A stretch of 64,000 nucleotides of DNA from Candidatus Sericytochromatia bacterium. Its GTDB lineage: Bacteria; Cyanobacteriota; Sericytochromatia; S15B-MN24; UBA4093. Location: NCBI GenBank assembly GCA_036676495.1, contig JAKFCT010000069.1:13486-77485 (forward strand), written 5' to 3'. Shown one piece after another: positions 5,679 to 22,888 of this stretch; within the stretch, counting starts at the first letter, position 1, and each line of letters starts with the position of its first letter. The notes below the pieces were generated by a model that saw nothing but the letters and a program-made list of their open reading frames with translations, was not told the origin of the DNA and made no database searches. Both the position numbers and the translations under genes were made by a program.

Positions 5679-5835
5679 AAAAAGAAAGCGCGCCAGCCGT
5701 TAGGAGCCCTGCTGGCGCTCGACTCGATACCCTCCTTGCGGAGGTTCAGGTCGGAGTGGCGGGAGGGGTACTCGGATAGAGGCACCCCAGCCCGCAAAGG
5801 TCCAAGATCGGGTCTGCGAACGGCTCCTGAACTAG
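5679..5835. repeat. Junction 1: terminator-like hairpin + tRNA-Pro 3'-end copy (att-like) + cryptic 28-codon tail
   Basis: gcgccagccgttaggagccctgctggcgc hairpin; ccttgcggagg hairpin; GGTCGGAGTGGCGGGA at 5749 matches the tRNA end at 22762. Confidence 0.8.
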
Positions 5836-5838
5836 CAG

Positions 5839-7323
5839 TCAGGGGCTAGTGACTTCGATATGGAAGCCGTCCCCCTCCCGTCGCAGAACTGCTTGTTGCG
5901 CGCGCAGCTTGAAGCCGGGCTGTTCGACCTCGAGGCTTCCTGAGGCGACCGAGGAGCCTGCGAGAAGCGGTTTTCCATTAACCCGGATCGCGCTCGGCTC
6001 CAGATTTCGGTATAGCTCGACCGTCAGTACCTTGGGCATGGTGTGTCGGATTGCGATGACGTTCTCCATCGTCAGCACCGGTTGTTTTGTCTTGGCGTGG
6101 GTGAACGCGAGAAGTTTACCTCGGGTGAGCCGGCGACCATCCGCGATGTCCCACGACTCGACCCATGAGCCGCCCATCGAGACGAGGTGCGAGGGCAGCT
6201 TCAGCGACAGCCGCGTTGCTCCCTGGCTGCGGAACTCCGTCATGACGTGCTCAATCTCACGGGACTCGGCTGCGGCCTGGGCTTGAAACTGAGCCTTGTG
6301 GCGCGACAGCTCTGCGTCGATGTTGTAGCGCTTCCCGAGTTGCTGGATGATTTCTTCGGGGCGCTGTTGCGGGCTCACGGCCTCCGCGAGAAGCCCATCC
6401 AGGGAGTCGACGTAATCCGAGAAGCGGCCTTTCCATTCTGGCATCAAGCGGTCCAAGAGATGGCAGATGGCCGCGCCCATGACGTAATACCGCGAGCGAT
6501 CCGGATCCTGCTGCTTCTCTAGCGCCGCTTTCAGCCTGGACGTCGTATAGGCGATGTGATTGGAGGCCCCCTTGGGATGGCTGCGCTCGAAGAACTTGTC
6601 CGTCAGGTACTGGGCCGTGCCTTCCGTTACCATCATGCCTTGCCGGTAATCCGCGTAATTCTTCGGGATCATGCTGTCGTGCTTCTGGCGTACCGCCAAG
6701 TAGAGCATGGCCCCGGTCTTGAGCGAGTTCGGGGTGCTTTCCCCGATGAGGCGTGCGAGAAGTGAGGCTTCGAGTTGCGTATAGGCGAAGTCTTCGGCGT
6801 CGAGAAGGCGCTCGTCGCCCTTTGCCATGCGGTGCATGAAATTTTCTTGGGCGGTGAAGTGAAAGGTTTCGTGGAACAGCGTCAGAAACTCGTGGATCGG
6901 ATCCAGGGTCTCAGCCGTCTTCGCTTGCGCCAATTGCTTGACGATGAAGACGCGTTCGCCGTCGACATGCTTTTCATCCCAGGCGTTATCCGTTGCGAGC
7001 CCGAGTCGTCTCACGGTTTCGCCTTCAAGGCGCTTGACGCTAGGCAACGATGGAAGCGGCCGCCCGTCTAGCCTTTTGGACGTGCTCGTCGGGGGAGCGT
7101 TCAACAAGTAGTAGGTGTCACCAGTCCCGTAAACCAGCGGGTAGCTGGTGAGATCGTAGCCAGGCCAGACGGGGCCTTCTTTCGCGCTGTTTAGGTAGCC
7201 GACGAGACGCGTCAGGACCACCTCATCGTGACTTGGCGCCGGTTTCGCCGCCGCCTGGATCGGTTGGGGCAGCATCGCAAGTAAGAGAAAGAGAGAGATG
7301 GCGAGTCGCTTCTTGATGCGCAT
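5839..7323 (-). CDS. Secreted putative zinc metalloprotease (gluzincin-like)
   Basis: Signal peptide; HETFH followed by EGTAQY. Confidence 0.65.
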   Translation of the reverse strand: MRIKKRLAISLFLLLAMLPQPIQAAAKPAPSHDEVVLTRLVGYLNSAKEGPVWPGYDLTSYPLVYGTGDTYYLLNAPPTSTSKRLDGRPLPSLPSVKRLEGETVRRLGLATDNAWDEKHVDGERVFIVKQLAQAKTAETLDPIHEFLTLFHETFHFTAQENFMHRMAKGDERLLDAEDFAYTQLEASLLARLIGESTPNSLKTGAMLYLAVRQKHDSMIPKNYADYRQGMMVTEGTAQYLTDKFFERSHPKGASNHIAYTTSRLKAALEKQQDPDRSRYYVMGAAICHLLDRLMPEWKGRFSDYVDSLDGLLAEAVSPQQRPEEIIQQLGKRYNIDAELSRHKAQFQAQAAAESREIEHVMTEFRSQGATRLSLKLPSHLVSMGGSWVESWDIADGRRLTRGKLLAFTHAKTKQPVLTMENVIAIRHTMPKVLTVELYRNLEPSAIRVNGKPLLAGSSVASGSLEVEQPGFKLRAQQAVLRREGDGFHIEVTSP

Positions 7324-7410
7324 CGTGGCCTCCGTGCTCGGTAGGTGGCTCTAGCAACATACCCGATCGCGACAAAAGAAAGGGTGCCAGCAAGCGATCG
7401 ACAGGGTTCC

Positions 7411-7565
7411 TTGACAGCGAAACGGGACATGTGGCAGGATGCGTACGGTCCATCCCGAGGAGGTCCCGACCGCGATGTAATTCCTGACATACGGCCATAT
7501 CCCCAGAATGCAGGCGCGCCGCAAGACGGTCGCAGCCGACGTGCAATGCGAGGACCCGTATGTCA
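7411..7565 (+). promoter_or_regulatory. Promoter and attenuator-like leader of the ABC-F gene, with a start-stop uORF
   Basis: TTGACA-18-CAGGAT; GAGGAGGT (7457-7464) then ATGTAA (7475-7480); 7485-7494 is complementary to 7556-7565. Confidence 0.65.
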
Positions 7566-9059
7566 CTTCTTTCCGCGAGCCGGGCGACGTTCCGGCATCC
7601 GGCCATGCCGGACGATCTCTTCTCGGACGTCACCTTCCACATTTCGCCTGGCGATCGGATCGCCCTCGTCGGCCCCAACGGGGCCGGCAAAACGACGCTT
7701 CTCAAGCTCATGACCGGTGCGCTCATGCTCACCGAGGGGGCCATCGTACGGCGGCGCGGCCTGCTCGTCGCGACGATGGACCAGGTTTCCGAAGCGCCTT
7801 CCGATCGATCTCTCTTGGCCCATGTCGCGGCAGCCGAGCCTGATGGCGCCGAATGGCGCGCCGTGATGGTGCTCGAGGGCCTGGGGCTGCCGGCCTCAAT
7901 CCACGACGCGCCATGGGGCACGCTCTCCGCGGGACAGCGCTCGCGCGCCATGCTCGCGGCGCTGCTCGTCGCCCCGGCGGATCTGCTCTTGCTCGACGAG
8001 CCGACCAACCATCTCGACGCGGAGGGGCGCGACTGGCTCGAAGCATGGCTGCCCCAGCAGGACGCCGCCATCGTGCTCATCTCCCATGACCGGGCGTTCA
8101 TCGAAGCCTCCGCCTCACGGATCTTCGAGCTGCGTCGCGGCAAGCTCACCGTTCACGAGGGTGATTACGCCTATTTCCGTGAAGCCAAGGCCCTAGCCGA
8201 TCGCCAGGCATGGGCTGCCTTCGAGGGGCAGCAGCGCCGCCAATCGGCGGCCACCCGGGCCGCGGCGAAACGCACGGCTCTTGCTCAGGATGTCGCGAAG
8301 GCCCCGAAAGGCCCAGGCCTTGGCGATAAGTCCTTTTACAAGGCCAAGGCTGCGAAGGTGGAAAAGACGGCAAAGATCATCCAGGCACGGGCCGAACGAG
8401 TCCCCGAGGCTCCGAAGCCGATCCTCGACGACGACATTCCCGTCCTGGATTGGGGGTTCGTGCGTCGATCGGGCGAACTGCCACTTGCGGTCAGGGGGCT
8501 CGCAAAAGCCTACGGCGATCACGGCCTCTTCGAGGGGCTCAGCTTCGACCTCGGGCGCGGCGAGCGGCTGGCCGTCCTCGGACAGAACGGAGCAGGCAAG
8601 ACTACCCTGATCCGAATTCTGCTCGGCCTCGAGACCCCGGACGCCGGGGAGATCGTCTGGGGGCATGGCGCTCAGCCCGGCTGGTTCGGGCAAGAGGCAG
8701 AGCAGCTCGACCCGGAGCTTTCGGCGCTCTCTAACCTGCTCACGGTGCGCCCAGACCAGGCCCGGGCCAGACTTCTGCTCGCTTGTCTAAGATTACGCGG
8801 GGACCGGGCATTTCAGCCGGTAGGTACCATGAGCGCGGGGGAACGCGCCAAGGTCGCACTCGCCAGGCTCTTGCTCAGCGGCGCCAACGTGCTCCTGCTC
8901 GACGAGCCCACCAACCATCTCGATCTCGATACCCGTGAGGCCATTGAAGCGACCCTCGCGACGTATCCCGGTGCGATCGTGCTCGTGAGCCATGACCGAC
9001 GCTTCATCGAGGCGATCGCCACGAGGACCCTCACACTGGGGTCTCCTGAGAGGGGGTAA
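7560..9059 (+). CDS. ABC-F ATPase, probably ribosome-protection (ARE) type
   Basis: Two ABC domains (GPNGAGKT and GQNGAGKT; LLDEPTNHLD twice), no TM segments, extended basic interdomain linker. Confidence 0.9.
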   Translation: MSLLSASRATFRHPAMPDDLFSDVTFHISPGDRIALVGPNGAGKTTLLKLMTGALMLTEGAIVRRRGLLVATMDQVSEAPSDRSLLAHVAAAEPDGAEWRAVMVLEGLGLPASIHDAPWGTLSAGQRSRAMLAALLVAPADLLLLDEPTNHLDAEGRDWLEAWLPQQDAAIVLISHDRAFIEASASRIFELRRGKLTVHEGDYAYFREAKALADRQAWAAFEGQQRRQSAATRAAAKRTALAQDVAKAPKGPGLGDKSFYKAKAAKVEKTAKIIQARAERVPEAPKPILDDDIPVLDWGFVRRSGELPLAVRGLAKAYGDHGLFEGLSFDLGRGERLAVLGQNGAGKTTLIRILLGLETPDAGEIVWGHGAQPGWFGQEAEQLDPELSALSNLLTVRPDQARARLLLACLRLRGDRAFQPVGTMSAGERAKVALARLLLSGANVLLLDEPTNHLDLDTREAIEATLATYPGAIVLVSHDRRFIEAIATRTLTLGSPERG

Positions 9060-9145
9060 CAGGGTCTGCCTGCTTCAGCGAATGAGCTCAGCCTACGCCC
9101 GGAACCGCTCATCGCGCGGGCAGCCAACGCTTGAGCTTCGTCCGC

Positions 9146-10591
9146 TCATTCGCGATCGATCGTGAGCAACTGCGGGGGTGTTGCGTCTGCCGGATAGATC
9201 AGCTGCAAGAGCACCTCGCGTCGTGCTTGAGGCGGAACCTCAATCACCTCGAACGGCGGTAGGCGCTGCCCCTGTCGCAGGGTGACGTGCGTCAGCCGGG
9301 TCACGTCCATGCCTCGCTCGTTCTTCCAATCCAGGCGAACGGTGCCACGGAACGTGACGGGAAGATTCGGAGGCTCGAGGTAGGTAACCGTTCGTCCTGT
9401 CGCACTCACGGGGTGCGAAAGCGACAGGGCGTAACGGCGCGGAGTCAGGTCAGGGTTCGATAGGGGAAGTCGCAGCCGGTAGGCCACCCCGTAGTTGCCG
9501 TGGGCCTGGTAAGCGGTCTCTGGGTAGCGCCGCAGCATGGGGGCACTTTGGACCTGGTCGGTTCCCAGGCGTTTCAGGTAGGTGGTCGCGAGCGGGTACG
9601 CCACGCCAGAGCCAGGCTGGGAGATCAAGGCCGACTCCCCCTCCGTGCTAAACGCCTCTCCTCGCCACTGGCTCCCGAGGCTCACTCCGGCCACACGACC
9701 AAACGTGAACCCACCCATCGGGGGAGGTTTTCCGGGGTCGAAGGGCGTCGCAGCCGCTTCACGATCCCCCGCCAGCTGGCCTAGTCGGATCAACGCCTCG
9801 TAGTCGTCCAGTTGAGGGACCAGGAACTCTCCGGTTTCGCTGCGCCTGGCGAAGATCGCAACCTCCGAGAGGTAGACCGGCCCATCGCTCTCGAAGTCGG
9901 CGAGAACGCTCCGGCCGTTGACCGCCGGGAGGCTCGGGACGTCGGTGGGAATGGGCCACTGGTAGAGGAGTTTGGATTCGCGGGGCTCCAAGCGGAACGT
10001 CTCGAGCGGCAAGTTAGACGTGCCGAGCAGCAACTCGGTGGCGACGCGATCGCCGGGCCCCGCGTAGACCTCACCCAGCGGGTTGGGCACGATCGGGTCT
10101 AGGGGTCTGAACTTGGCATCCGGCTGACTGAGGTAAGACGAACCCCTGAAGGGGACGATCGTGTGCGCCTGGTCGCTCAGGTTGGTCGCGACCAGCCCGA
10201 CGTAGAGAAGCCGCTCTCCGGGCGTCTCGTCCTTGGCAATGTGGTGGGAGAAGTACGAGAACTTCCCCTTGAAGGCATAGTCGAGGAAGGCCGGCCCATC
10301 GACCTCAGCGCTGGGAGGCAGGGTCGAAACCAGAATCCCTTCCCGCTGGACGATCTCAGGGCTGTTGCTGTTGAGCACCGGAGTCCCGTCGAGGCCGCCG
10401 GGAAGGGGAAAGACCGGCCGTTCAGTCGTCACGGGAACCTGCGGGCTCGGACTCACCTGCGGGTAGGGGGGCATTCCGCCTTCCCCTGGGGCTTGCGGGT
10501 GGCGAATCGTGCCGCATCCCACCAGGAACGAGAAGACCAACAGGAGCGGCATCCGAGATGACCTGGGTGGCACGAAAGTACGCATTCGCAT
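9146..10591 (-). CDS. DUF3370 family lipoprotein
   Basis: PLPGGLD..PVLNSNSPE..GILVST, YLSQPDA, AHGNYGV, YPADATPPQ; lipobox LVGC; start uncertain. Confidence 0.8.
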   Translation of the reverse strand: MRMRTFVPPRSSRMPLLLVFSFLVGCGTIRHPQAPGEGGMPPYPQVSPSPQVPVTTERPVFPLPGGLDGTPVLNSNSPEIVQREGILVSTLPPSAEVDGPAFLDYAFKGKFSYFSHHIAKDETPGERLLYVGLVATNLSDQAHTIVPFRGSSYLSQPDAKFRPLDPIVPNPLGEVYAGPGDRVATELLLGTSNLPLETFRLEPRESKLLYQWPIPTDVPSLPAVNGRSVLADFESDGPVYLSEVAIFARRSETGEFLVPQLDDYEALIRLGQLAGDREAAATPFDPGKPPPMGGFTFGRVAGVSLGSQWRGEAFSTEGESALISQPGSGVAYPLATTYLKRLGTDQVQSAPMLRRYPETAYQAHGNYGVAYRLRLPLSNPDLTPRRYALSLSHPVSATGRTVTYLEPPNLPVTFRGTVRLDWKNERGMDVTRLTHVTLRQGQRLPPFEVIEVPPQARREVLLQLIYPADATPPQLLTIDRE

Positions 10592-10829
10592 CGAGGGCCC
10601 CTTGCCACGATGGGCGGAAAACAGGGGTGGCATGCGACGCCATGGGCCGCTTCGTAGGTTCGGTTCATGAAAGCGCCGCGCGTTGGATCGTATGCTCCGC
10701 CTTCCGGTTCGGCCAGTTGCACTTTGCACCAGCCGGCACCGAGGGCCCGGACGTTTCTTCGATTGGCCTCATCGACTTGACGCCGCCAGGGCCCACGCGG
10801 AGCGTCCCTTACCGTCCTGCACCACCTCA

Positions 10830-10938
10830 GGCCGCTTGCGGAGTTTCAGGTCGGAGGAGCGGGATCGTCAATCCACGTGCCACCTTTCAGGCCACAAGGG
10901 TTAAAGACCTAGTCCACGAGCTGCTTTTGACGATCTAG
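10830..10938. repeat. Junction 2: tRNA-Pro 3'-end copy + cryptic 29-codon tail
   Basis: cttgcggagtttcaGGTCGGAGGAGCGGGATC; tail ends RVKDLVHELLLTI*. Confidence 0.75.
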
Positions 10939-10975
10939 GCGTTGGGGAAAGCTGTAATCGTACTCGAACCTAAGG

Positions 10976-12091
10976 TTAGTCGATTTGAGGACTTGCTGTG
11001 CAGTTGGGAACCGACACGGAGTCCATCTCACCGGGGAAGAACCGTTGCTTGAGCCAGAGCGAGACGTAGACCAAGGCCACCAGAGCGGGCACTTCGACAA
11101 GGGGACCTACGACCGCAGCTAAGGCTTCCGAGGATGCGATGCCGAACATCCCGACAGCCACCGCGATCGCCAGTTCGAAGTTGTTTCCCGCTGCGGTGAA
11201 GGATAGAGCTGCCGTCTCCTGGTAATTGAAGCCCAAGGCCTTGCTCACGGCGAAGGCGAGGAAGAACATCACCAGGAAGTAGAGCACGAGCGGAATCGAG
11301 ATGCGAACGACATCCACGGGGAGGCTGACTATCTTGCTGCCCTGCATGCTGAACATCAAGACGATGGTGTATAGCAGGCCGATGAGGGCCGTTGGCCCCA
11401 GCTTGGGCATCAGGACGTTGTCGTACCAGTCGCGTCCCTTCAAGCGAACGCCCACGATACGGGTGATGGCACCCAGGGCCAGAGGGATGCCGAGGAAGAT
11501 GAGGACGCTCTTGGCGATGGCCCACATGGAGACGTCGAGTGCAGTGGCCGTGCCGCCCAGCCAGACCGGTAGGACCGTCAGGAAGAAGTAGCCCAACACC
11601 GAGTACATCGCGATCTGGAAAAGGGAGTTGAGCGCCACCATGATGGCAGCGGCTTCGCTGTCGCCTTTCGCGAGCATGTTCCAGAGCAGGACCATGGCGA
11701 TGCAGCGGGCGAGCCCAATCATGATGAGGCCGGTTCGGTACTCCGGCAGGTCGGGTAGCATCACCCAGGCCAGGCTGAACATCACCACCGGTCCGAGAAT
11801 CCAGTTGAAGAACAGCGAGGCCCCTAAGAGCTTCCCCTTCGCCTTGAATGTTCCGAGGGTTTCGTAGCGGACCTTGGCGAGGACCGGATACATCATCCAG
11901 AGCAAACCGATAGCGATGGGCAGCGATACATCCGCCACCTGGACGGCATCAAGGGCCGGGCCGATACCCGGAAAGACCTTCCCGAGCAGAACGCCCAGCG
12001 CCATGGCGGCGAAGATCCAGAGGGGTAGGAAACGGTCGATGAGAGACAGCTTCCCGACGATGTTCGATACCTGAACGGCTTCTGTGGCCAT
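10976..12091 (-). CDS. acr3: Arsenite efflux transporter Acr3
   Basis: LSLIDRFLPLWI, GLARCIAMV, AAGNNFELAIAVA, GPLVEVP. Confidence 0.95.
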   Translation of the reverse strand: MATEAVQVSNIVGKLSLIDRFLPLWIFAAMALGVLLGKVFPGIGPALDAVQVADVSLPIAIGLLWMMYPVLAKVRYETLGTFKAKGKLLGASLFFNWILGPVVMFSLAWVMLPDLPEYRTGLIMIGLARCIAMVLLWNMLAKGDSEAAAIMVALNSLFQIAMYSVLGYFFLTVLPVWLGGTATALDVSMWAIAKSVLIFLGIPLALGAITRIVGVRLKGRDWYDNVLMPKLGPTALIGLLYTIVLMFSMQGSKIVSLPVDVVRISIPLVLYFLVMFFLAFAVSKALGFNYQETAALSFTAAGNNFELAIAVAVGMFGIASSEALAAVVGPLVEVPALVALVYVSLWLKQRFFPGEMDSVSVPNCTASPQID

Positions 12092-12092
12092 G

Positions 12093-12416
12093 CTACAGCT
12101 CCTCGAAGATGGCCAAAGGCTCCTTGGCGGTGTCAGTGGCCTTGTAGTAGTTCCAGCGGCCCTGTTTCCGAGCCGTGACCAGGCCTGCTTGGCTCAGAAC
12201 CGACAGGTGATGCGAGAGACTGCCTTGGGGCATCCCGAGCACTTCCATGAGGTCGCAGACGCAGACCTCGTGGTCCTTCACGAGGTGCAGCAACTTGAGG
12301 CGAACCTCGTCGCCCAGCGCCTTGAAGAGCCGGGCCTTGTCGGCCAGCCCGGCGGGCAACACGGTTGGGTTTGGACTCTCACAGCAGGCGGTGAGCTGCT
12401 TCAACTTCTTGAGCAT
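12093..12416 (-). CDS. arsR: ArsR family repressor
   Basis: FKALGDEVRL..EVCVCDL..SHHL..RKQGRWNYY. Confidence 0.9.
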   Translation of the reverse strand: MLKKLKQLTACCESPNPTVLPAGLADKARLFKALGDEVRLKLLHLVKDHEVCVCDLMEVLGMPQGSLSHHLSVLSQAGLVTARKQGRWNYYKATDTAKEPLAIFEEL

Positions 12417-12441
12417 GGGATCCCCTTGACAAGCTACGAAC

Positions 12442-12479
12442 CCATCGATTAATTTCGATTCATCGAGAAACGTCGATGG
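12442..12479. promoter_or_regulatory. Probable ArsR operator (two ATCGA-N6-TCGAT inverted repeats)
   Basis: ccATCGAttaattTCGATtcATCGAgaaacgTCGATgg between the divergent ars genes. Confidence 0.65.
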
Positions 12480-12526
12480 TTCTATTCTACACCCAGTTCG
12501 CTCAGATTCAAGCGAGGAGGTCCACC

Positions 12527-13309
12527 GTGCCCTTGCCCACTTCCCAAGATGAAATTCGCCAGGTCGTTCAGGAGCACTACGCCGAGGTCGCAAAAAGCGC
12601 GCAGAGCTGTTGCGCTCCATCCTGCTGCTCGCCCAGTTCGACAAGCTTGGGCTACACTGCAGAAGACCTGACCTCAGTTCCCAAGGGGGCCGACCTCGGC
12701 CTCGGGTGCGGCAACCCCCAGCTCATCTCTGAGCTGAAGCCGGGCGAGGTGGTGTTAGACCTTGGCAGCGGTGCGGGTTTTGACTGTTTCCTGGCCGCCA
12801 ACAAGGTCGGGCCGACCGGAATGGTCATCGGCGTGGACATGACCCCCGAGATGCTTGACCGTGCCCGTCAAAACGCCCACAAGGGGGGCTACTCCAACGT
12901 CGAGTTCCGTCAGGGGCTGATCGAGGACCTACCGGTCGAGGCTGGGACCGTCGACGTCATCATGTCGAACTGCGTCGTCAACCTCTCGCCTGCTAAGGCC
13001 CAGGTCTACCAAGAGGCGTTCCGGGTCCTGAAGCCGGGCGGGCGCATCGCCATCTCTGACGTGGTCGCATTCCAGCCGCTTCCCATCGAGATCCGGGAAC
13101 AGCTCTCACTTTACTCGGCGTGCATCGCAGGAGCCGCGACCATCGCCGACATCGAGGGCATGCTCCGTGATGCCGGTTTCGATAACATAAACATCCAGGC
13201 GAAGCTGGAGGAGAGCCGGATGATGGTCCAGGAGTGGGCGCCCGGCAGTGGATTGGAGGAGTACGTGGCCTCGGCGATGATCACCGCAAGCAAGGCGGTT
13301 GGCCAATGA
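12527..13309 (+). CDS. arsM: Arsenite methyltransferase
   Basis: LGLGCGNP, VLDLGSGAGFDC, SNCVVNL, CIAGA; GAGGAGG RBS. Confidence 0.93.
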   Translation: MPLPTSQDEIRQVVQEHYAEVAKSAQSCCAPSCCSPSSTSLGYTAEDLTSVPKGADLGLGCGNPQLISELKPGEVVLDLGSGAGFDCFLAANKVGPTGMVIGVDMTPEMLDRARQNAHKGGYSNVEFRQGLIEDLPVEAGTVDVIMSNCVVNLSPAKAQVYQEAFRVLKPGGRIAISDVVAFQPLPIEIREQLSLYSACIAGAATIADIEGMLRDAGFDNINIQAKLEESRMMVQEWAPGSGLEEYVASAMITASKAVGQ

Positions 13310-13713
13310 AACAGGTCCTGTTTGCCTGCATCCACAACACGGGGCGCAGCCAGATGGCTGAGGCATTCTTCAACCAGATCGCTGACCCCACCAAGGCACG
13401 CGCCATCTCCGGGGGAACTGAGCCGACATCGGGGATGAATCCCACCGTTCTCGCCGTCATGAAAGAGGTTGGCCTCGACTTGGTGGCCCAAGGGCATCAC
13501 CCGAAGCTCGCAGACCTGGACGCTCTCTCGGTCGGGGATCGGGCAATCTCCATGGGGTGTGGCGTGAGCCTGGCATGCCCTGCGCACTTGGGCCGGATGG
13601 AAGACTGGGGGCTGGATGACCCTAAGGGGCAGCCCATCGAGCGCGTCCGCGAGATTCGCGACGACATCAAGAAGCGAGTCGAGGGCCTGGTACGCGAACT
13701 TGGGGTTTTGTAA
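13306..13713 (+). CDS. arsC: Arsenate reductase (LMW-PTP type)
   Basis: CIHNTGRSQMAEA...DWGLDDPKG. Confidence 0.9.
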   Translation: MKQVLFACIHNTGRSQMAEAFFNQIADPTKARAISGGTEPTSGMNPTVLAVMKEVGLDLVAQGHHPKLADLDALSVGDRAISMGCGVSLACPAHLGRMEDWGLDDPKGQPIERVREIRDDIKKRVEGLVRELGVL

Positions 13714-13725
13714 GTTTTGAAATCG

Positions 13726-13759
13726 ATTAGGGGATGGGACGGTGATCCCATCCCCTAAT
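13726..13759. terminator. Hairpin after arsC
   Basis: attaggggatggga...tcccatcccctaat inverted repeat. Confidence 0.7.
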
Positions 13760-13770
13760 CCTTCGACATG

Positions 13771-13925
13771 AAAGAATGACCGCCAGCAGTGAGACGCATG
13801 CTGACGGGGAGCCTACAGTAAACCTCAGATCAGAAGCTCCCCGTCCCGTTATGCGATGAGGCAAGACGCCGAATTCCCAGGCAAATTGGGCGCAGGATCG
13901 AGTCCACAAGCGCCTCCTCTCCTAG
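13771..13925. repeat. Junction 3 (degenerate): hairpin + eroded att + tail remnant
   Basis: gaccgccagcagtgagacgcatgctgacgg; tcagatcagaagc; tail ...SQANWAQDRVHKRLLS* ends 13925. Confidence 0.6.
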
Positions 13926-14078
13926 GTTTGAGAACGGTTTGTTTTCGTGTGATATTGTTTATTCGAGTTTACGCTTGAATGCCTCGATACTCGATATCCA
14001 ACTCCCGCCATTTACTGGAACAGTAACGTTAGCGCGGGCTCGCTGGCACCATCCTTGCGGCTGGGCAAAGGGGGGAAA

Positions 14079-14507: not shown

Positions 14508-14612
14508 CTAATATCGGTGGCGTTGCCGCCAAGCAGCGGCTCGTCTCGGACGCAGCGAACAAACACCTGGACGTAGGCAAGGTTTCGCTTCCGACGCCGC
14601 TGAAATTCCCGC

Positions 14613-14766
14613 AAGAGAAAGACCGCCAGCAGTTAGAAGCCCTGCTGGCGGTCTATTCTTGATTCCCTTGCGGGATTCAGGTCGGAGCGGCGGGATGGTT
14701 ACTTTGAACCAGCCACCCCATGGAAAAAAGCTCCAGGAGCTGATCCACGAGCTGCTTATGGCCTGA
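14613..14766. repeat. Junction 4: terminator hairpin + tRNA-Pro 3'-end copy + 28-codon tail
   Basis: GGTCGGAGCGGCGGGAT (14680-14696) is identical to the tRNA end; 14613-14688 matches 18741-18816 at 75/76 nt. Confidence 0.9.
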
Positions 14767-15019
14767 TTTGCGGGCACTGAGCTTACTAATCTGAGTACTT
14801 GACGACGAAAGATCCCGGCGCTATGAAGTGCCTTGACTCATTCAGACCCTGGCAGGCCCCAAAGGGGGGGCCTACGCTTGCCGTGCTGTCACGTGTTTCC
14901 ACGAACGTCGTCCTGTGGAAGGAAGTCTTGTTTGAGCTGACACTGACGCTCGTGAGAAGTTCTCAGAGAAAGGTGTCCGGAGTCTTGACCCTGGACACCT
15001 TCAATGTACGCCGTAAAGA

Positions 15020-16582
15020 CTAGTAAATTAATCCCCAGTAGACGTCGAGGATCGCACGGTTATCGTAGTACCACGCGTTGTTCCGAAGTTTCGTGATGGC
15101 CGAATCGTTGTTCGTGAGTTTGCCCTGCTGGACGTAGAGCGCCAGCGCACCGGTCACGATGGGGGCCGCGAAGCTGGTTCCCCAGCCACCATGCATCCCT
15201 ACGTCGTAACCCGTGGTCTGGTTCGCAACTGCAACGTTGCTACCACCCGCGTAGATGTCAGCGAAGGTCATGTTCGCGGTACCGCTGCTGTACGAGGACA
15301 CGCTCCGGTCCGTATCATGCGAGCTTACGCCCAAGACCTCGCCATATCCTGCCGGATAGTTGTTCTGGTTCCCTTTGTTACCCGTAGAGGAAACCTGGAT
15401 CATCCCGGCGTCGTAGTTGGCCTTAATGGCACCGTACCAGCCCCACATCCAGGCCGGATACAGCCAGCTGGTTTCCGTGGTCGAGAAGCTCATGTTCACG
15501 ATCTTCACGCCGTCGTACCGCGCCTGATCCAGCGCTCGGGCGATCTGATTCATGTCCATGTTCTTCCCATCCTGGTCGGCGTACACGTGGTACGCGTAGG
15601 GAATGGCATGAGGAGCAACGCCCGCCGCTCCTGCAGAGTCGTTGAGCGCCGAGAAGATTAGCGAGGCGACGGGACGACCGTGACCCATTCCGACTCGAAT
15701 GTCCTGATTGTTGTTTTCAAAGTTGTAGCTCCAGACGCTTCCGGAGTTCCCCCAGAGCTGAGTCGCATAGGGCTCACCAGGAGCCATGAAGCGGTTGTCG
15801 ATGACCGCGACCTTGACGCCCGCTCCGTTAGCAAAGCTCCATGCTGCAGTGCTGGACTGGGGATTGATGCGGTTGCCGTAAATACCACCGGTGCCGTAGT
15901 CCCGCATGTACCAGAATTGGCTCGTCGAAGGCGTCACGCTGCCGTTACCCTCGTTGTAGAGGACCCCTGTGGCGTCGGTTCCAGCCTGATTGATGCCGAT
16001 GTGGAAGACCTTGTTCGCCTTCTTGTTCTTGTGGACTTTCAAGACTTGCTGCAAGGCCTTGGCCGCCCGCTTGTCGGAGAAGACCATCTCGCCACGGACG
16101 CCGACCTCTTCGGAGAGCTGAGGAAGCTGGTCCAGGGCGACTTTGCTGTCTTCAAAGGCGACGAGGTAGGTGTCGGTATAGCCGTCCTCGATGTAAGAAC
16201 TGTCGGGCATTGCCTTGAGCTTTTTCTCCTGCTTGACGATCCGCGCGCCGTACGTCTGCAGAAAGTTCGAGACCTCACCGTCGGTGGCGCCCTCCTCGAA
16301 CGTGACTCGCGTCTCGTCGGGGTAGAACGTGACCACTGTTTCAGGCTTATTCTTCAAGTAGTACTTGGACTCGCGGCCAAGAGACTGGGTTGAGACGTCG
16401 GACTCGAACGAGTAGGTGAACGGCTTGTCAGCCAACTCGGGAAGAACCGTACGAGGATTCGTGTGCTCCACCAGGGGAGCCCCTTTGACCATGTCCTTGT
16501 CTTGACCGTCTTGAATGCTTGAGGGCGGCACGCAGCCGACCAAGGCCAGGCTCAGGATTAGCGCGAGCTTCGTGAGTTTCAC
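15020..16582 (-). CDS. S8 subtilase lipoprotein
   Basis: Lipobox LVGC; catalytic triad VAVID / HGRPVA / GTSFAAP; lower GC than the flanks. Confidence 0.9.
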   Translation of the reverse strand: MKLTKLALILSLALVGCVPPSSIQDGQDKDMVKGAPLVEHTNPRTVLPELADKPFTYSFESDVSTQSLGRESKYYLKNKPETVVTFYPDETRVTFEEGATDGEVSNFLQTYGARIVKQEKKLKAMPDSSYIEDGYTDTYLVAFEDSKVALDQLPQLSEEVGVRGEMVFSDKRAAKALQQVLKVHKNKKANKVFHIGINQAGTDATGVLYNEGNGSVTPSTSQFWYMRDYGTGGIYGNRINPQSSTAAWSFANGAGVKVAVIDNRFMAPGEPYATQLWGNSGSVWSYNFENNNQDIRVGMGHGRPVASLIFSALNDSAGAAGVAPHAIPYAYHVYADQDGKNMDMNQIARALDQARYDGVKIVNMSFSTTETSWLYPAWMWGWYGAIKANYDAGMIQVSSTGNKGNQNNYPAGYGEVLGVSSHDTDRSVSSYSSGTANMTFADIYAGGSNVAVANQTTGYDVGMHGGWGTSFAAPIVTGALALYVQQGKLTNNDSAITKLRNNAWYYDNRAILDVYWGLIY

Positions 16583-16739
16583 ATGCGCTCCTTTACTTTT
16601 GCTATGGTGCTGTAATAGTGGTTGTTACGTCATATGCGTTATCATAGCAGTTGGATGGCCGCTTCTACAACTATCCTTGCGCTTCCCGTGGATGGTTTTG
16701 CCGAGCGTAACTTGGTCACGGACTTTGCTTAGAGTCGTG

Positions 16740-17224: not shown

Positions 17225-17617
17225 AGGGCCTCCGATCGAGACCATCGCTGGCTCATCAGGTCTTCGAGCTGGACGGCCCAAGACTTGCCCATGGCCCCTT
17301 ATGTATACGAGTTATCCATGTGGCTTCGCGGATCGGAGCTTCGGTCCGCTGCTGAGCGATCCACGGAAGTGCAGGGCGATCGAGACCGCTTTCATTGGTT
17401 CTGCCGGGACTTCTTGCCGTAGCGCAGCACGCCCACCTTCGTGAGCTGCATGCCCTGGGCGACGTGAAGGTGGGCGTTGCCGGCTTGCGGGCGCTAGAGC
17501 CTCTGCCTCCGGTTGAAGCGGCGCTTGCCGGCACACTATACTACCTGCGGATCGGGTTGGGTGGACGAAGATGCCGGCGCGACGCGCCCGAGATTGAGAC
17601 GTAGGAGAATAGCCACT

Positions 17618-18106
17618 ATGAAGAAAGCCATCATCTACCTGTGGTATGAGCACGACGCGGAGGAGGCAGCACACTTCTATGCCCGGACCTTTCCCGACAG
17701 CAAGGTCGGCGCGGTGCAACGGGCGCCGTCCGACTTCCCGAGCGGCAAGGCGGGTGACGTGCTGACGGTCGAGTTCACGGTGTGCGGCCTGCCATGCGTG
17801 GGCCTCAACGGCGGGGACGCGTTCAAGCAAAGCGAAGCGTTCTCCTTCCAGATCGCCACCGAGGACCAGGCGGAGACCGACCGCTACTGGAACGCGATCG
17901 TCGGCAACGGCGGTGAGGAGAGCGCGTGCGGCTGGTGCAAGGACAAGTGGGGCGTGTCATGGCAGATTACGCCGCGCGTCCTGACCGAGGCGATGGCCCA
18001 GGGTGGCGAAGTCGCGAAGCGCGCGTTCGAGGCGATGATGGAGATGCAGAAGATCGACGTCGCAAAGATCGAGGCGGCGGTGCGCGGCGAGACTAACCCG
18101 GGATAG
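17618..18106 (+). CDS. VOC family protein (PhnB/3-demethylubiquinone-9 methyltransferase-like)
   Basis: LNGG..FKQSEAFSFQI..CGWCKDKWGVSWQI. Confidence 0.9.
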   Translation: MKKAIIYLWYEHDAEEAAHFYARTFPDSKVGAVQRAPSDFPSGKAGDVLTVEFTVCGLPCVGLNGGDAFKQSEAFSFQIATEDQAETDRYWNAIVGNGGEESACGWCKDKWGVSWQITPRVLTEAMAQGGEVAKRAFEAMMEMQKIDVAKIEAAVRGETNPG

Positions 18107-18189
18107 GATCTCCAGCGCCTAGGAAACTAACGAGGGCCTGACCGTTTTCGGTCAGGCCCAGCGTGCGTGCCACTCCCGCCGAGAGGATC

Positions 18190-18735
18190 CCCCAGTTCTT
18201 GGTCCGGGCAAAAGTGCGAAATTGGACCTCACTGTCACGATGTAAACGCTGAAACGCCCACTTGGCGGGCAAGTTCAGCGGGGGCCGAAAGTCCAACGCT
18301 TTGTGAGGGCGCCTGAAGTTATATGGGGCTCTCTGGGCAGCGATCTTACGCCTGGCGTCGTCCAGAGACAAGAACCAGTTGGGGGCCAAGCACTCGTCCT
18401 GAACGCTGCCGTTGGAGGATTCGATGAACGCATGGTCCTTGGGGTTACCGGGCCGAGAGAAGTCCAACGTGACGCCGTTCTCATAAGCCCAACGGTCCAA
18501 GCCTTTCGAGATGAACTCGGGGCCGTTGTCGACACGATTGTTCTTGGGGACGCCACGCTGATGGCGAAGCCGCTCGAGGACGGCCACGACCTGCTCGCCC
18601 TTGAGCCCCTGGTCCACCTCGATGGCTAAATTCTCCCGGGTAATCGTATCCAGTACGGTGAGGGACCGAAATCGCTTGTCATTGAAGAGCGCGTCTGAGA
18701 CGAATCCCATGTACCAGCGCTCGTTCTCTGCATTG
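18190..18735 (-). mobile_element. IS3-family (IS407-like) transposase OrfB remnant
   Basis: W.MGFVSDAL (first catalytic D mutated), VDNGPEF, RPGNP..AFIES.NG, YN..RPH.AL; N-terminus missing. Confidence 0.85.
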
Positions 18736-18740
18736 AGGAG

Positions 18741-18816
18741 AAGAGAAAGACCGCCAGCAGTTAGAAGCCCTGCTGGCGGTCTATTCTTGATTCCCTTGCG
18801 GGAATCAGGTCGGAGC
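18741..18816. repeat. Junction 5: hairpin + att core, cut by an IS3-like terminus at 18817
   Basis: Near-identical to 14613-14688; followed by TGACCTGACCCCAATTACTTGGCC. Confidence 0.85.
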
Positions 18817-19072
18817 TGACCTGACCCCAATTACTTGGCCGAAGTGAATTGAACTCGGAATGTAAAGGGATCCTTCCAAACGGAAGGGCCTACGCGGGGG
18901 AGAGCGCTTGACGACCCCAAGCCCTGGCGCGGCCGGGGCGTTCATACGGAGGGTGTCGGGGGAAGCTCTTCGCGTAGACCCTACCATAAACAAGAAATGT
19001 CACGGCGTGAGGCCGCATGATCTTATAGGATAGCAGTCCGCGCGGCCGGACTAAAGCACGCATCGGCGCGAT

Positions 19073-21868
19073 CTACCCGGTGGTGCGTAGCCCCGAGGCG
19101 ATCGCGTTGACCGTCATGAGCACCCGCAAGAGGGCGGCCTCGGAGGCCTCCCCCTCGGCCCGGAGCCGGCGCCAGCGGCCAAGCTCGGCGATTTGCTGGC
19201 GGTGCAGGGCCCGCAAGGGCTCCTCGCGCAGGCGCAGCGTCTTGTGCAGCCGGGGCCGGCGCTCGGCAAAGGGCGCCGGGAAGACGGCGTGCAGCATGCG
19301 CCGGGTCAGCTCGTACTCGCCCATGATCTGGGTCATGGCCTGCTCGCGCAGCTCCGTGTCCTCCACCAGGCCGGCGTAGTCGCGCATGACGCGGGCGTCG
19401 GCGGTCATGAGGCTGGACTCGACGTTGCTGAGCACGTAGGTGAGGAACGGCCACCGGCTGGCTTCCTCGAGCACCTGCGCGAAGCCCTCGGCATCGCTTT
19501 CCTGCAAGCGGGCGAGGGCCGAGCCCACGCCAAACCAGCCCGGCAGGTAGAAGCGCGACTGGTTCCAGCTGAAGACCCAGGGAATGGCCCGCAGGTCGGC
19601 GAGCGTTCGCTTCCCGGTTCGGCGCGCGGGCCTGGAGCCGATGCGCCCCAGCTCCAGGGCATCGATCGGGGTCGCCTGGCCGTAGAAGGTCATGAAGCCC
19701 TCGGACTGGACCAGGGCCTCGTAGGCTTCCCGGCTCCAATCGGCGAGCTGGCGCATGCGCGGCGACAGCCCGCGCGGCACCGCCGCCCGGCGCCCGCGCA
19801 GGAGCGTGACCTCGGTGGTGGCCGCTGCGAGCAATTCGAGGTTGTAGGCGGCTTGATCCACGTGGGAGTACTTCTGGGCGATGGTCTCGCCTTGCTCGGT
19901 CATGCGGAGCTTGCCGGAAACCGTTCCCGGAGGCAGGGCCTCGAGGAAGCGGTAGGTGGGCCCCGCGCCGCGCCCGATGGTGCCGCCGCGCCCGTGGAAG
20001 TACTGGAGCGCGACGCCCAGTTCGCGCCCCACTTGCAGCATGGCGATCTGGGCCTCGTAGAGCCCCCACTGGCTCGCCAGGATGCCGCCGTCCTTGCTGG
20101 AGTCCGAGTACCCGATCATCACCTGCTGCAAGGGTCGATCGCCATGCAGGCGCGCGAGGCTGCGCCGCGTCATGGGATGCGCCAGGAAGGTGCTCAGGAT
20201 GCCCGGGCTGCGCTGAAGATCCTCGATGGTCTCGAACAAGGGCACGATCGGCAGGAGCGCGACGGGGCCGTCGGGACTCGCCACGACCAGGTCGGTTTCG
20301 CGGGCCAAGAGGTAAACCACCAGCAGATCCGAGAGCGAGCGGGTCATGCTCACGATCAGCGAGCCGATCCCGGGGCCATGGTGCGCCAGGTGCTCGGCCA
20401 GCACCCGGTACGTATCGAGGACCGCGTCGGCCTCCGGCCCGATGCCCCGGGTCGGGCGCGAAAACGGCCGCATGCGCTGAAGCTCGGCGTTGAGGAAGTC
20501 GAGCCGCTTACTTTCGGGCCAATCGGCAAAGTCCTCGCCGTCCAGGCCCCCGGCCTTCAGGAGCTGCGAGACGGCCTTGTCGTGGAAGACCGAGTTCTGG
20601 CGGATGTCCAGCTTGGCCAGGTGAAACCCGAAGGTCCTGAGACTGTCGAGGGCTTCCTGGACCTCGGTCTGCGCGAGCCGCCGGGCGCCCACCGCCTGAA
20701 GGGCGTCGCGCAGCACGATCAGGTCCGCTTCGAGCTCGGAGGCGAAGCGGTAGGCCCCCGGATGATCGAGAAGCTTCACCGCGTGGCTGCGCATCACGTC
20801 CACCGGCAGCCTCAGGATCATGAGGTTGAGGAGTTGCCGCCAGGGCTCCTCGGGGTTGCGGTCCAGGGCTTCCTGGCCCCGCGCTCCCAGCTGGCCCGCC
20901 ACCGTCCAGATCCGCTCCAAGAGCTCGGGAGGCGGGGCCTGGTAGCGATCTGACAAGCTGAGCTGCGCGGCCAGCTCCAGCAGCTGCCGCCGCAGCACCC
21001 GCATGGCCTGGAGCCTGAGGTCCGCGAGCGTCTCGCGGGTGACCTCGGCCGTCACCAGGGGGTGTCCGTCCCGGTCGCCGCCGACCCAGGTGCCGAAGCT
21101 CAGCAAGGGGCCCGTCGTCAGCTCGTCGGCCGCAAAGCCCGCTTCCTCCCAGGCCAGCCGCAGCCGCCGCTTCATCCCCGGCAGCGCCCGCGGGAAGATC
21201 TCGCGCAGGTAATGCTCGACGTTTCGCAGCTCGGAGGCCACGTCCGGCTTCTCGAGGAAGATCTCGCCCGTCCGCCAAAGCCTCTCCAGGACGCGCTTGA
21301 CCGCGTCGCGGTTCTCGCGCTCCTCGATCGGCGTCAGGACGTGCTGGCGCTCCTGGAGGTAGCGAAACAATTCCCGGTGATGCTCCAGCACCGTCGCGCG
21401 CTTGGCCTCGGTGGGATGCGCCGTCAGGACCGGCTCGATCGCGATCTCGGGAAGCGCCCGGGCGATCTCGTCGGACGCCAATCCCGCCTCCTTCAGCCGC
21501 GCGAGCGCATGCCCCCAAAGCCCCGGCTCCATGCCCAGGCCCGCCTCGGCCTCGTGACGCCGCCGGTGGTGCGCGAGCGTATTCTCCTCGGCCAGGTTCA
21601 AGAGCAGGAAGGCCATCGAGTAGCCCTGGTAAAGCCGCTCGGAGTCGCCCTCCGCGACGACGGGCGCCTCGTCGCTCAGCCACGGCACCGCCCGCGCGCC
21701 CTCCGGACCGAGGTCTTCGAGCACCTCGCGAAAGCACTCCAGCAGGAAGCGGAAATCCCGCTCGAACGGATCCGCGCCCGCGCTCGGGGCCCATACCGTC
21801 GTCAAGATCGGCGACCCTGCGGCGCGGGGCCGGCGGCTCTCGGGATTTGCTCGCTCGCTCATCGTCAC
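19073..21868 (-). CDS. ppc: Phosphoenolpyruvate carboxylase
   Basis: VLTAHPTE, WVGGDRDGHP, VMIGYSDSSKDGG, FHGRGGTIGRG, LRAIPWVFSW, GLRTTG. Confidence 0.97.
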   Translation of the reverse strand: MTMSERANPESRRPRAAGSPILTTVWAPSAGADPFERDFRFLLECFREVLEDLGPEGARAVPWLSDEAPVVAEGDSERLYQGYSMAFLLLNLAEENTLAHHRRRHEAEAGLGMEPGLWGHALARLKEAGLASDEIARALPEIAIEPVLTAHPTEAKRATVLEHHRELFRYLQERQHVLTPIEERENRDAVKRVLERLWRTGEIFLEKPDVASELRNVEHYLREIFPRALPGMKRRLRLAWEEAGFAADELTTGPLLSFGTWVGGDRDGHPLVTAEVTRETLADLRLQAMRVLRRQLLELAAQLSLSDRYQAPPPELLERIWTVAGQLGARGQEALDRNPEEPWRQLLNLMILRLPVDVMRSHAVKLLDHPGAYRFASELEADLIVLRDALQAVGARRLAQTEVQEALDSLRTFGFHLAKLDIRQNSVFHDKAVSQLLKAGGLDGEDFADWPESKRLDFLNAELQRMRPFSRPTRGIGPEADAVLDTYRVLAEHLAHHGPGIGSLIVSMTRSLSDLLVVYLLARETDLVVASPDGPVALLPIVPLFETIEDLQRSPGILSTFLAHPMTRRSLARLHGDRPLQQVMIGYSDSSKDGGILASQWGLYEAQIAMLQVGRELGVALQYFHGRGGTIGRGAGPTYRFLEALPPGTVSGKLRMTEQGETIAQKYSHVDQAAYNLELLAAATTEVTLLRGRRAAVPRGLSPRMRQLADWSREAYEALVQSEGFMTFYGQATPIDALELGRIGSRPARRTGKRTLADLRAIPWVFSWNQSRFYLPGWFGVGSALARLQESDAEGFAQVLEEASRWPFLTYVLSNVESSLMTADARVMRDYAGLVEDTELREQAMTQIMGEYELTRRMLHAVFPAPFAERRPRLHKTLRLREEPLRALHRQQIAELGRWRRLRAEGEASEAALLRVLMTVNAIASGLRTTG

Positions 21869-21964
21869 CCCCTGGCAAGGCCGTCCCCCCCACCTTAGGG
21901 GAGGACGCCCGGGTTGACGATGGTGCCTGTGTCGGATCTGGGGGGGAGTTTGGGGTGATTGCGC

Positions 21965-22135
21965 CTAAACGGGTGCCGCGACCCGCGCGTCGTCCGGCCG
22001 AGGCAGCGTGAACCAGAAGCGCGAGCCCTGGCCGAGCGCACTTTCTACTCCGATCGCCCCGCCATGCGCCTCCACCAGCGCCTTGGCAATCGACAGCCCC
22101 AGCCCGGTCCCCCCGTACGAGCGCGTCGTCGACGG
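21965..22135 (-). pseudogene. Orphan C-terminal fragment of a histidine kinase HATPase domain
   Basis: [40 protein letters not shown] with no upstream HisKA domain. Confidence 0.8.
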
Positions 22136-22140
22136 ACGCG

Positions 22141-22888
22141 GGGAACGGCTTGTGATTCCCCGCTGCTCAACGCCAGGGTGGTAGAGAAGCTGGTCTTCGA
22201 CCTGCTTCTGCGTGGCCTCAAGGTCCGTCTCAACGAGCTTCGAGGTGCTACGACGCTGGTCACCGAATCTCCCAATGTCGGCGAGGTGGAGCGTGAACTG
22301 GCCGACTTGCAGACCAAGCGGGAGCTGATCCTCGACAACTACACGGATGGTTGTTATGGCCACGGACCCGAGGCTAAGGCCAAACGGGATGCCAAGCTTG
22401 CTCCGGTTCTTAAGCGGATCGAGGAGATCGAGAAGGAGCTAACGCCCGCGGAGCATTCCAAGCCAAACGAGCTGGAGGAAGCCCTGACCAACATCCGGGA
22501 TCTCTGGGAGGCTTGGCCTACTTCGGTTCGGCGCGACATCCTGCGGACCTATGTCCCTGAGAGGTTCCAACTGCGGAAGGATCGTACCCTGCGAGCCGAG
22601 GTCTGCGGCGTTCTCCTTGAGGTAGACATTCCCGTCAAGCCTCAGCCGACCAAGGGGATGCGGTACGCCGGGCGCCAGAAGGCGGAGAAAAACCAAGACG
22701 GCCTGCAGTTAGAAGCCCTGCAGACCGTCTTAGATTCTACCCCCCTGTTAGGGGGGGTAAAGGTCGGAGCGGCGGGATTCGAACCCACGACCCCCACTAC
22801 CCCAAAGTGGTGCGCTACCAAGCTGCGCTACGCCCCGACTGTTTTTTACGTTTTTCCTTTTGGGGAAGGAAACGTTAACTTGGGGTGA
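22141..22888 (+). pseudogene. C-terminal remnant of a large serine recombinase, reading through the tRNA-Pro att site
   Basis: End of zinc ribbon (C.SP..NA..VE..V), coiled coil with L.D.Y.DG, ..LW......RR.IL; catalytic domain absent. Confidence 0.7.
22764..22837 (-). tRNA. tRNA-Pro(GGG)
   Basis: CGGGGCGTAGCGCAGCTTGGTAGCGCACCACTTTGGGGTAGTGG...GTTCGAATCCCGCCGCTCCGA cloverleaf. Confidence 0.95.

Follow-up and report, generated by a model that had tools for sequence, protein, structure and literature searches.

The 64,000-nucleotide stretch of Candidatus Sericytochromatia DNA analysed here (the window, on contig C69 of its assembly) holds, behind a tRNA-Pro(GGG) gene, a stack of small accessory-gene cassettes separated by repeated copies of the tRNA 3' end; the stack makes up the tRNA-proximal 17 kb of an island of ~28 kb. 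We consider it likely that this array was built by serial site-specific integration at tRNA-Pro(GGG), catalysed by a rare clade of large serine recombinases (LSRs), and that it decayed afterwards. An initial annotation, made from the sequence without database searches, had proposed repeated integration at one attachment (att) site in the tRNA 3' end, and the results below support it.

Tails of tRNA-Pro(GGG) recur as junctions along the array

The assembly holds a single tRNA-Pro with a GGG anticodon, and the core of the repeat is the last 17 nt of this gene (GGTCGGAGCGGCGGGAT, read on the plus strand). The 17-mer is exact at 14680 as well as in the tRNA itself (22762) and has two mismatches at 5749 and at 10849; at 18808 its first 9 nt (ggtcggagc) are kept and the sequence then diverges. 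A scan for the 17-mer at up to three mismatches did not recover the 18808 copy, because only those 9 nt remain there, and such a scan is weak when taken alone (four matches against a shuffle mean of 1.0, with four reached in 2 of 100 shuffles). Two hairpins precede every copy except that at 10849, just as they precede the tRNA, and the stretches 14613-14688 and 18741-18816 agree at 75 of 76 positions (98.68% over 76 nt). All junction copies, four strong and three eroded, lie downstream of tRNA-Pro(GGG) in the orientation of the tRNA.

Twelve junctions, from the window and three relatives, were aligned. Read in tRNA sense, the unit is made up of the 17-mer and two hairpins, a short one whose loop is usually GCAA and one of 12-13 bp whose loop, GGGCUUCUAAC, is invariant; UUUCU comes next. 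The stems covary, with compensatory changes in 6 of the 17 predicted pairs. A covariance model covering the entire junction (17-mer and two hairpins; hereafter R1) was searched with filters off against the window and the 13.5 kb to its left, and found four strong copies, at 14616-14696, 5683-5765, 22692-22778 and 18744-18825, with E-values from 1e-17 to 1e-22 (bit scores in Table 1). The match at 10821-10865 (21.7 bits, E 0.0017) consists of the 17-mer and the small hairpin only, and that at 13780-13807 reaches only 10 bits (E 1.2). Separate evidence for the latter, an eroded copy that the initial annotation had placed near 13830, is an exact match at 13778 to 13 nt of the hairpin arm: with at most one mismatch this 13-mer matches five times, always in junctions (shuffle mean 0.08; five matches reached in 0 of 100 shuffles). 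The co-oriented tails at 5749, 10849, 14680 and 18808 that the annotation had reported, their hairpins, the near-identical pair and the eroded copy were all confirmed.

Against shuffled sequences, three of the four strong copies fold with z between -5.5 and -8.1, and the decayed copy at 5749 with z -1.4. An Rfam search with an E-value threshold over positions 4000-25000 returned just two tRNAs and one weak chance match, and the junction therefore belongs to no described RNA family. At junction 14680 (14605-14696) the arm of the small hairpin can alternatively pair beyond the large hairpin, which gives a composite stem of 26 bp.

The junction is tied to one tRNA gene in the assembly and in the family

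Six junction queries (blastn-short) against the 4.1-Mb assembly matched only C69 and one place on C66, so the junction is not a genome-wide repeat. In the C66 copy (C66:19400-19481; L041, 9401-9482) the 17-mer is mutated, and no tRNA lies close by; the copy adjoins a small lipoprotein gene, intact on C66 and reduced to a 3' remnant to the right of window junction 14680, and may represent an insertion at a secondary site.

In an R1 survey of 47 genomes of the class (E <= 0.01), 17 gave matches, among them all ten of the window's family. In seven of these ten, several co-oriented copies stand on the contig of tRNA-Pro(GGG): four strong ones in the window's own assembly (G000), five in its congener G001, two strong and two weak in its congener G002, six in G003, which belongs to a different genus, eight in G008, and two each in G005 and G006. 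The three genomes of genus g3 have one copy each, the trailer of the tRNA itself. Stray junctions on other contigs number one or two each in G001 (two), G002, G003, G005 and G006.

A dispersed terminator element of the repetitive extragenic palindromic (REP) or miniature inverted-repeat transposable element (MITE) kind, resembling a tRNA tail by chance, would account for the stray copies on C66 and in these five relatives and for the stability of the hairpins, but we give it almost no credence: a single copy lies outside the island in 4.1 Mb, in seven of the ten family genomes all strong copies share one orientation and group behind a single tRNA, and each copy carries the tRNA's own 17-mer. 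The genome-wide scatter that the initial annotation had held against its own proposal is therefore not what the assembly, or the few strays of the relatives, display.

Copies are spaced by 0.4-6.2 kb, to which the 9-kb element of G002 described below is added, and the content of the array is different in every genome compared. By Pfam, the cargo of the relatives comprises NHL-repeat, nucleotidyltransferase-pair, Rrf2, methyltransferase, YhcG nuclease and DNA-alkylation-repair genes, and further cation-efflux, VOC, AHSA1, PhnA and insertion-sequence (IS) genes; an LCM methyltransferase recurs in G002, G005 and G008, and DNA-alkylation repair in G001, G005 and G008. The array of G008 (L029) contains two complete tRNA-Pro(GGG) genes, 7697-7772 and 14524-14598, 6.8 kb apart.

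Two genera share cassettes in opposite order

Three units of the window recur between R1 junctions in the array of G003 (Table 1). The blastn blocks are co-linear, both tRNAs point in the same direction and the orientation within each cassette is kept. Towards the tRNA, the order in the window is HEXXH, ABC-F, ars and then further cassettes, and in G003 it is ars, ABC-F, HEXXH. The order is thus reversed, with no cyclic permutation, which argues that single cassettes were inserted independently. The initial annotation had reckoned with relatives that carry the same genes in the same order without junctions; in G003 there are junctions, and the order is the opposite one.

The ABC-F block is 89% identical in DNA to both G003 and G006, the HEXXH cassette 82% identical to G003 over 1719 nt including the junction, and within the ars cassette ACR3/ArsR and ArsC reach 84% and 76%, respectively, to G003. 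In the core flank (19 kb), compared with G003 and G006, most blocks are at 67-75%, as against 82-89% for the cassettes. The boundary between HEXXH and ABC-F is an intact junction in G003 and the stub at 7373-7400 in the window, where a deletion of ~110 bp fused the two cassettes.

A rare large serine recombinase is linked to the tRNA in relatives

The remnant at 22151-22690 aligns with the intact LSR of genome G018 (659 aa) over residues 387-632 of the latter, at 52% identity, and matches the phrog_95 integrase (E 5.9e-7). No Pfam domain was found in it, and the catalytic, recombinase and zinc-ribbon domains are missing; judged by these comparisons, it is an LSR-family pseudogene of which the C-terminal 40% is left. 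Its plus-strand frame stops just short of the trailer hairpins. The intact gene of G018 occupies the same place beside tRNA-Pro(GGG), and the congener G002 likewise has an intact LSR (598 aa) beside this tRNA, both with Resolvase, Recombinase and Zn_ribbon_recom domains. In G019 an intact LSR stands next to a degenerate tRNA 3' half, and in G011, G016 and G025 there are LSR remnants, adjoining the tRNA or on short contigs.

The clade is rare, with 10 proteins at E <= 1e-20 among 7,999 scored candidates. Within the family, a search with the G018 LSR yields matches in just 2 of 10 genomes, namely the G002 gene and the window remnant, and the G002 LSR adds only matches of 25-31% in the N-terminal domain. 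Relatives in metagenome contigs are limited to G018's own contig, and viral contigs gave none. Three other Recombinase-domain genes lie in the window's assembly, on C20, C22 and C104, and none is a close homologue: the C20 gene matches at 26% over its N-terminal part only and the other two show no match.

Searched with tblastn, the three intact LSRs match the window only at 22151-22879, besides an antisense tRNA-Pro(CGG) at 33280-33387. Over the window and 15 loci, the true LSR matches are this region, the G002 gene and the remnants of G011 and G016; all remaining matches are antisense tRNA. No LSR fragment was found by this search within the arrays of G001, G003, G008, G005 and G006, and a Pfam scan of 121 of the 129 array open reading frames (ORFs) of relatives gave no Resolvase or Recombinase domain. 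As the annotation had it, only the tRNA-proximal segment of the window keeps an LSR remnant, and no other cassette is matched by any of the three LSRs.

One tyrosine recombinase occurs among the 121 ORFs scanned, a XerC/D-like gene inside the LSR-bearing element of G002 (L022:4333-5307). The LSR frames of G002 (L019:1255-3051), G018 (L024:10109-12088) and the window (21959-22888) run without a stop into the trailer and the antisense tRNA, so that the C-terminal coding end of the LSR would change on excision, although at 66% GC such an open frame may be due to chance.

A candidate crossover block at the element ends

The intact element of G002 spans the 9 kb between the tRNA and a distal junction that is 97.7% identical to the window junction at 14680. 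Its two ends share exactly 20 bp, GAATCCCGCCGCTCCGACCT, and differ on either side, so the crossover would lie within those 20 bp. Beyond the 17-mer, many inner junctions continue with GGTTAC and then with a degenerate TTCGAACC...CACCCC. This arm resembles the tRNA 3' half with an insertion of 6 nt in the T-loop and, by this resemblance, looks like the arm of an attP site. At 18808 the break in the junction comes after AGGTCGGAGC, exactly midway along the 20-bp block, which would fit the cut of a serine recombinase at a pseudo-site; this is a weak hint, as chance alone would place the break there about 3 times in 20.

Proposed mechanism and competing explanations

Taking these observations together, we propose that the mobile DNA consists of circles whose attP imitates the tRNA 3' end; they would recombine with the tRNA inside an identity block of 18-20 bp, running from the last T-loop bases through the 3' strand of the T-stem to the acceptor end. 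Each insertion would rebuild the tRNA and push the earlier tail (17-mer and trailer hairpins) outward, where it would survive as a junction and then erode. The enzyme would be a member of the rare LSR clade, whose gene is convergent to the tRNA and sits directly behind the trailer hairpins. Most units measure 0.8-5 kb and hold 1-4 self-contained accessory genes; since the small units never come with recombinase remnants, they would most likely have entered as circles without a recombinase of their own, with a transient LSR element supplying it, and such mobilisation in trans is plausible. A more far-reaching version, which we put forward only tentatively, is that tRNA-Pro(GGG) serves one Sericytochromatia family as an LSR-run cassette-capture platform, at which recombinase-less circles of 1-5 kb with a pseudo-tRNA attP are inserted singly, exchanged between genera and re-sorted by a rare, transient LSR.

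Alternatively, each cassette could be the stump of a complete LSR-bearing element whose recombinase was later deleted without trace, nothing ever having been mobilised in trans. The tRNA-proximal unit has decayed in just this way, with its LSR cut to the C-terminal 40%, and the report on tycheposon islands records degenerate elements and fragmented integrases (10.1101/2020.12.28.424599). However, the arrays of five relatives and the other window cassettes hold no LSR fragment, units as short as 0.8-1.3 kb exist, and the same short cassette boundaries in two genera would require identical deletions twice, which makes this explanation very improbable.

Homologous recombination deserves more attention, although we hold it unlikely to be the main force. 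In this case the LSR would only have seeded the first repeats, and the 80-bp junction repeats, acting as portable homology, would account for most movement of cassettes. Gain, loss and reordering would come about through RecA-dependent looping-out, through Campbell-type re-insertion and through double crossovers that capture transformed DNA. This view would agree with trailers that are specific to the host lineage despite shared cargo, with the identity of junctions 1 and 2 at 75 of 76 positions where others differ by ~20%, which looks like gene conversion, with the persistence of arrays in four well-assembled genomes without a cognate LSR, and with the ~110-bp deletion that fused two cassettes. 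It sits poorly with cassette ends that begin at the same base right behind the 17-mer in different genomes, and with the degenerate tRNA-like arm kept by many right arms, which looks like an attP half-site; moreover, 80 bp at ~80% identity would be a poor substrate for RecA.

Several results weigh against serial integration by the LSR. The initial annotation had suggested a search for an intact LSR elsewhere, and none cognate was found in the window's assembly (92% complete), nor in the array-bearing G001, G003, G005 and G008 (96-100% complete); in these five array-bearing genomes, action in trans would therefore have no resident enzyme today. No excised or circular form was seen in the metagenome and viral contigs searched for LSR relatives, and an identity block of 18-20 bp is long for a serine recombinase. 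In the congeners G001 and G002, homologues of ars and ABC-F with 78-82% identity lie elsewhere on the chromosome, and R1 with filters off found no strong junction at these places (best 17.4 bits). Such cargo therefore also exists outside cassettes, and paralogy could explain part of the higher identity to G003. The junction hairpins are terminator-like by their folds and position only, and a simple terminator scan did not flag them (9-nt loop, short T run). Finally, all four G003 junctions in the alignment are of G003's own trailer type, so that trailers follow the host lineage and not the cassette; plain capture by attP x attB would not predict this, and it would be expected from gene conversion or homologous capture, one of which would therefore act as a second force. 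Within serial integration, homologous exchange between the 80-bp junction repeats has probably added to the shuffling.

Organization of the island and its flanks

The features of the array are listed in Table 1 from the tRNA end outward. The gene content that the initial annotation had given for each segment agrees with Pfam and with the ORFs. Its junctions stand too, but its set was incomplete, an additional eroded junction being present at ~7373-7400, and the island extends past the left limit it had drawn.

Table 1. Features of the tRNA-Pro(GGG) array in the window, and the corresponding cassettes of G003. R1 scores in bits; z, folding score against shuffled sequences.
Feature	Position	Strand	Remarks
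tRNA-Pro(GGG)	22762-22837	minus	intact, array anchor; ARAGORN; Rfam tRNA 59.7 bits
Junction 0	22692-22778	minus	17-mer, C-rich small hairpin, 16-bp hairpin with loop GGGCUUCUAAC; R1 85.3; -47 kcal/mol, z -5.46
LSR C-terminal remnant	22151-22690	plus	convergent on tRNA
Histidine-kinase 3' fragment (HATPase_c)	21965-22126	minus	77% DNA identity to kinase-gene 3' end at 22987-23117
Second, accessory phosphoenolpyruvate carboxylase (ppc), cargo	19073-21868	minus	PF00311, E 1e-222; GC 0.70
Junction 1	18741-18825	minus	both hairpins and first 9 nt of 17-mer; R1 79.7; z -8.13
IS3-type transposase remnant	18093-18731	minus	rve core only, cut at junction; PF13683, PF00665
PhnB-like protein (3-dmu-9_3-mt domain), cargo	17513-18106	plus	PF06983, E 6e-48
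S8 subtilase, cargo	15020-16582	minus	PF00082, E 2.4e-29
Cassette end adjoining junction 2	14697-14932	minus	degenerate tRNA-like stretch (GGTTAC and TTTGAACCAGCCACCCC) and lipoprotein-gene 3' remnant
Junction 2	14613-14696	minus	exact 17-mer and both hairpins; R1 101.7; z -6.80
VOC/glyoxalase-fold protein, single-gene cassette	14055-14507	plus	PF00903, E 4.4e-10
Eroded junction 3	13778-13850	minus	exact 13-mer of hairpin 5' arm left, remainder decayed
ars cassette	10976-13713	mixed	
LMW-phosphatase-type ArsC (ars cassette)	13234-13713	plus	
SAM methyltransferase (ars cassette)	12476-13309	plus	
ArsR (ars cassette)	12093-12644	minus	
ACR3 (ars cassette)	10976-12091	minus	
Junction 4	10821-10865	minus	17-mer with 2 mismatches and small hairpin; large hairpin lost
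ABC-F and DUF3370 segment	7394-10729	mixed	
DUF3370 protein	9146-10729	minus	
ABC-F ATPase	7560-9059	plus	
Eroded junction 5	7373-7400 (approx.)	minus	first ~20 nt (AAAAGAAAGGGTGCCAGCA) left; between HEXXH gene and ABC-F
Secreted 494-aa HEXXH protein	5839-7323	minus	HETFH at residue 151
Junction 6	5683-5765	minus	17-mer with 2 mismatches and both hairpins, partly decayed; R1 88.2; z -1.44
ars cassette of G003	contig C14, 9424-11814		between R1 junctions
ABC-F and DUF3370 fragment of G003	contig C14, 11953-14068		between R1 junctions
HEXXH gene of G003	contig C14, 14147-15852		single-gene cassette beside tRNA; between R1 junctions

The trailer of junction 0 is of the type found beside LSR genes, and relatives with an LSR at the tRNA have the same architecture; junction 2 and the native tRNA trailer of the congener G001 share 97.6% identity. 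The cassette end next to junction 2 has 73.6% identity to C66:19404-19717. An ORF through the right arm of the junction was considered as a conserved small protein and is better explained by conserved DNA together with the lipoprotein-gene 3' remnant. The island ppc is a second paralogue: the other copy of the assembly, on C28, is 39% identical to it, and G001, G002 and G008 have one match each, at 38-41%. A copy of the island-type ppc in G003 has no flanks in common with the window cassette. The GC content of the cassettes is 0.56-0.64, that of the genome 0.659.

On the tRNA side the flank is syntenic with G001 and G002 at 75-86% identity. At the other end, the first 5.7 kb of the window show no synteny with the congeners; a glycosyltransferase gene within them is 85% identical to one in G005, just past two junction copies behind the tRNA-Pro of that genome. 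Synteny with G001 and G002 resumes near C69:6.6-8.1 kb, ~5.4-6.9 kb left of the first base of the window, and decayed junction-like hairpins occur at C69:7093-7169 and 8056-8125, with a third further left at C69:5040-5107. A stretch of 130 bp at window positions 866-996 has a GC-rich hairpin and a 77% copy inside the G008 array, and short matches to it lie near a weak G002 junction and on a G001 contig.

A PAS histidine-kinase gene (22965-24530) separates tRNA-Pro(GGG) from tRNA-Phe(GAA) in the window; the two tRNAs are ~270 bp apart in G001, and a different ORF of 593 aa stands between them in G002. A repeat of the tRNA-Phe 3' end, sought as an explanation for the kinase gene between the tRNAs, was not found. 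The 3' end of the kinase gene forms a direct repeat of 131 bp (21996-22126 and 22987-23117; 77%) with one copy on either side of the LSR remnant and the tRNA. G002 also has a kinase end of this kind; there it passes straight into a sequence resembling window 18841-19060, and ppc does not intervene.

Comparison with known systems

Genomic islands commonly accrete at tRNA genes. The array has the traits of such an island, namely an intact tRNA at one end followed by co-oriented 3' partial copies, and variable content between syntenic flanks; the tRNA-proximal recombinase position holds only a C-terminal remnant in the window and an intact LSR in G002 and G018. For mobile elements of Sericytochromatia no description was found in a literature search that was not aimed at this group.

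The tycheposons of Prochlorococcus use tRNA genes as integration sites and have partial copies of the tRNA on their flanks (10.1101/2020.12.28.424599); in their islands, later integrations push older elements deeper and leave degenerate remnants with extra partial tRNAs, the tycheposons being rarer and more transient than the islands themselves. These islands follow the same accretion logic as the tRNA-Pro(GGG) array. Their recombinases are of the tyrosine type in 910 of 937 cases and large serine recombinases in 27 of 937, whereas here the linked enzyme is an LSR and the units are mostly of 1-4 genes without a recombinase trace. The host also differs, being a soil Sericytochromatia lineage; the single sequencing run in which the stretch was found carries the label soil metagenome and may be the source. 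No tycheposon-type replication genes (primase, helicase, polymerase), nor genes like those of phage-inducible chromosomal islands (PICIs), were found by Pfam in the ORFs of at least 130 aa of the window (positions 1-26000) and the 121 array ORFs of relatives, and the latter also lack capsid genes.

Among LSR-based elements, the closest analogues are the staphylococcal and Enterococcus cassette chromosomes (SCC and ECC). SCC units that lack ccr are mobile when ccr is provided in trans. In these chromosomes, variable cargo is placed by LSRs at the 3' terminus of a single conserved gene, rlmH; att sites in direct repeat lie on both sides of the element, 16 of 32 ECCs have several attR sites, and many cargo genes are also found elsewhere in genomes (PMC6222049). 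The target here is a tRNA gene and not rlmH, one LSR gene takes the place of the ccrAB pair, and the units measure 0.8-5 kb against 21-78 kb for the ECCs.

The serine-integrase integrative and conjugative elements (ICEs) of streptococcal rumA have their att site in the 3' end of the integrase gene, and integration swaps its C-terminal coding end (PMC4701971). The present LSR frames, which in G002, G018 and the window run through the trailer into the antisense tRNA, are similar in this respect. The rumA elements are conjugative, target a protein gene and have repeats of 2-21 bp; no conjugation genes were seen here.

The initial annotation had called the array integron-like. A stack of small cargo cassettes at one site, a structured repeat closing each of them and an order that varies between genomes are indeed shared with integrons. 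The attC sites of integrons have paired R''/R' boxes, whereas the junctions here are tRNA tails with a conserved GTTAGAAGCC in the hairpin loop; the motif GTTAGAA was considered as an integron core site and rejected, as it sits in this loop and not in paired end boxes. Genes point both ways, the ars cassette carries its own regulator (ArsR), there is no fixed integrase, attI or attC, and no IntI-type tyrosine recombinase stands beside the tRNA site (no Phage_integrase match in the window ORFs of positions 1-26000). The array is thus not an integron, and the likeness is confined to its appearance as a stack of cassettes.

What sets the array apart is the combination of an LSR linked to a site inside a tRNA gene, with a block of identity of 18-20 bp, units that are tiny, self-contained and free of recombinases, and the same units in two genera in opposite order, which makes mobility at the level of the cassette directly testable. 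A tRNA-specific LSR with candidate attP and attB sites could also be of interest as an integration tool. If the capture platform proposed above is real, every junction would double as a strong hairpin closing off its cassette, and the platform would match the integron in function while being made of other parts, with an LSR in place of IntI and a tRNA tail in place of attC.

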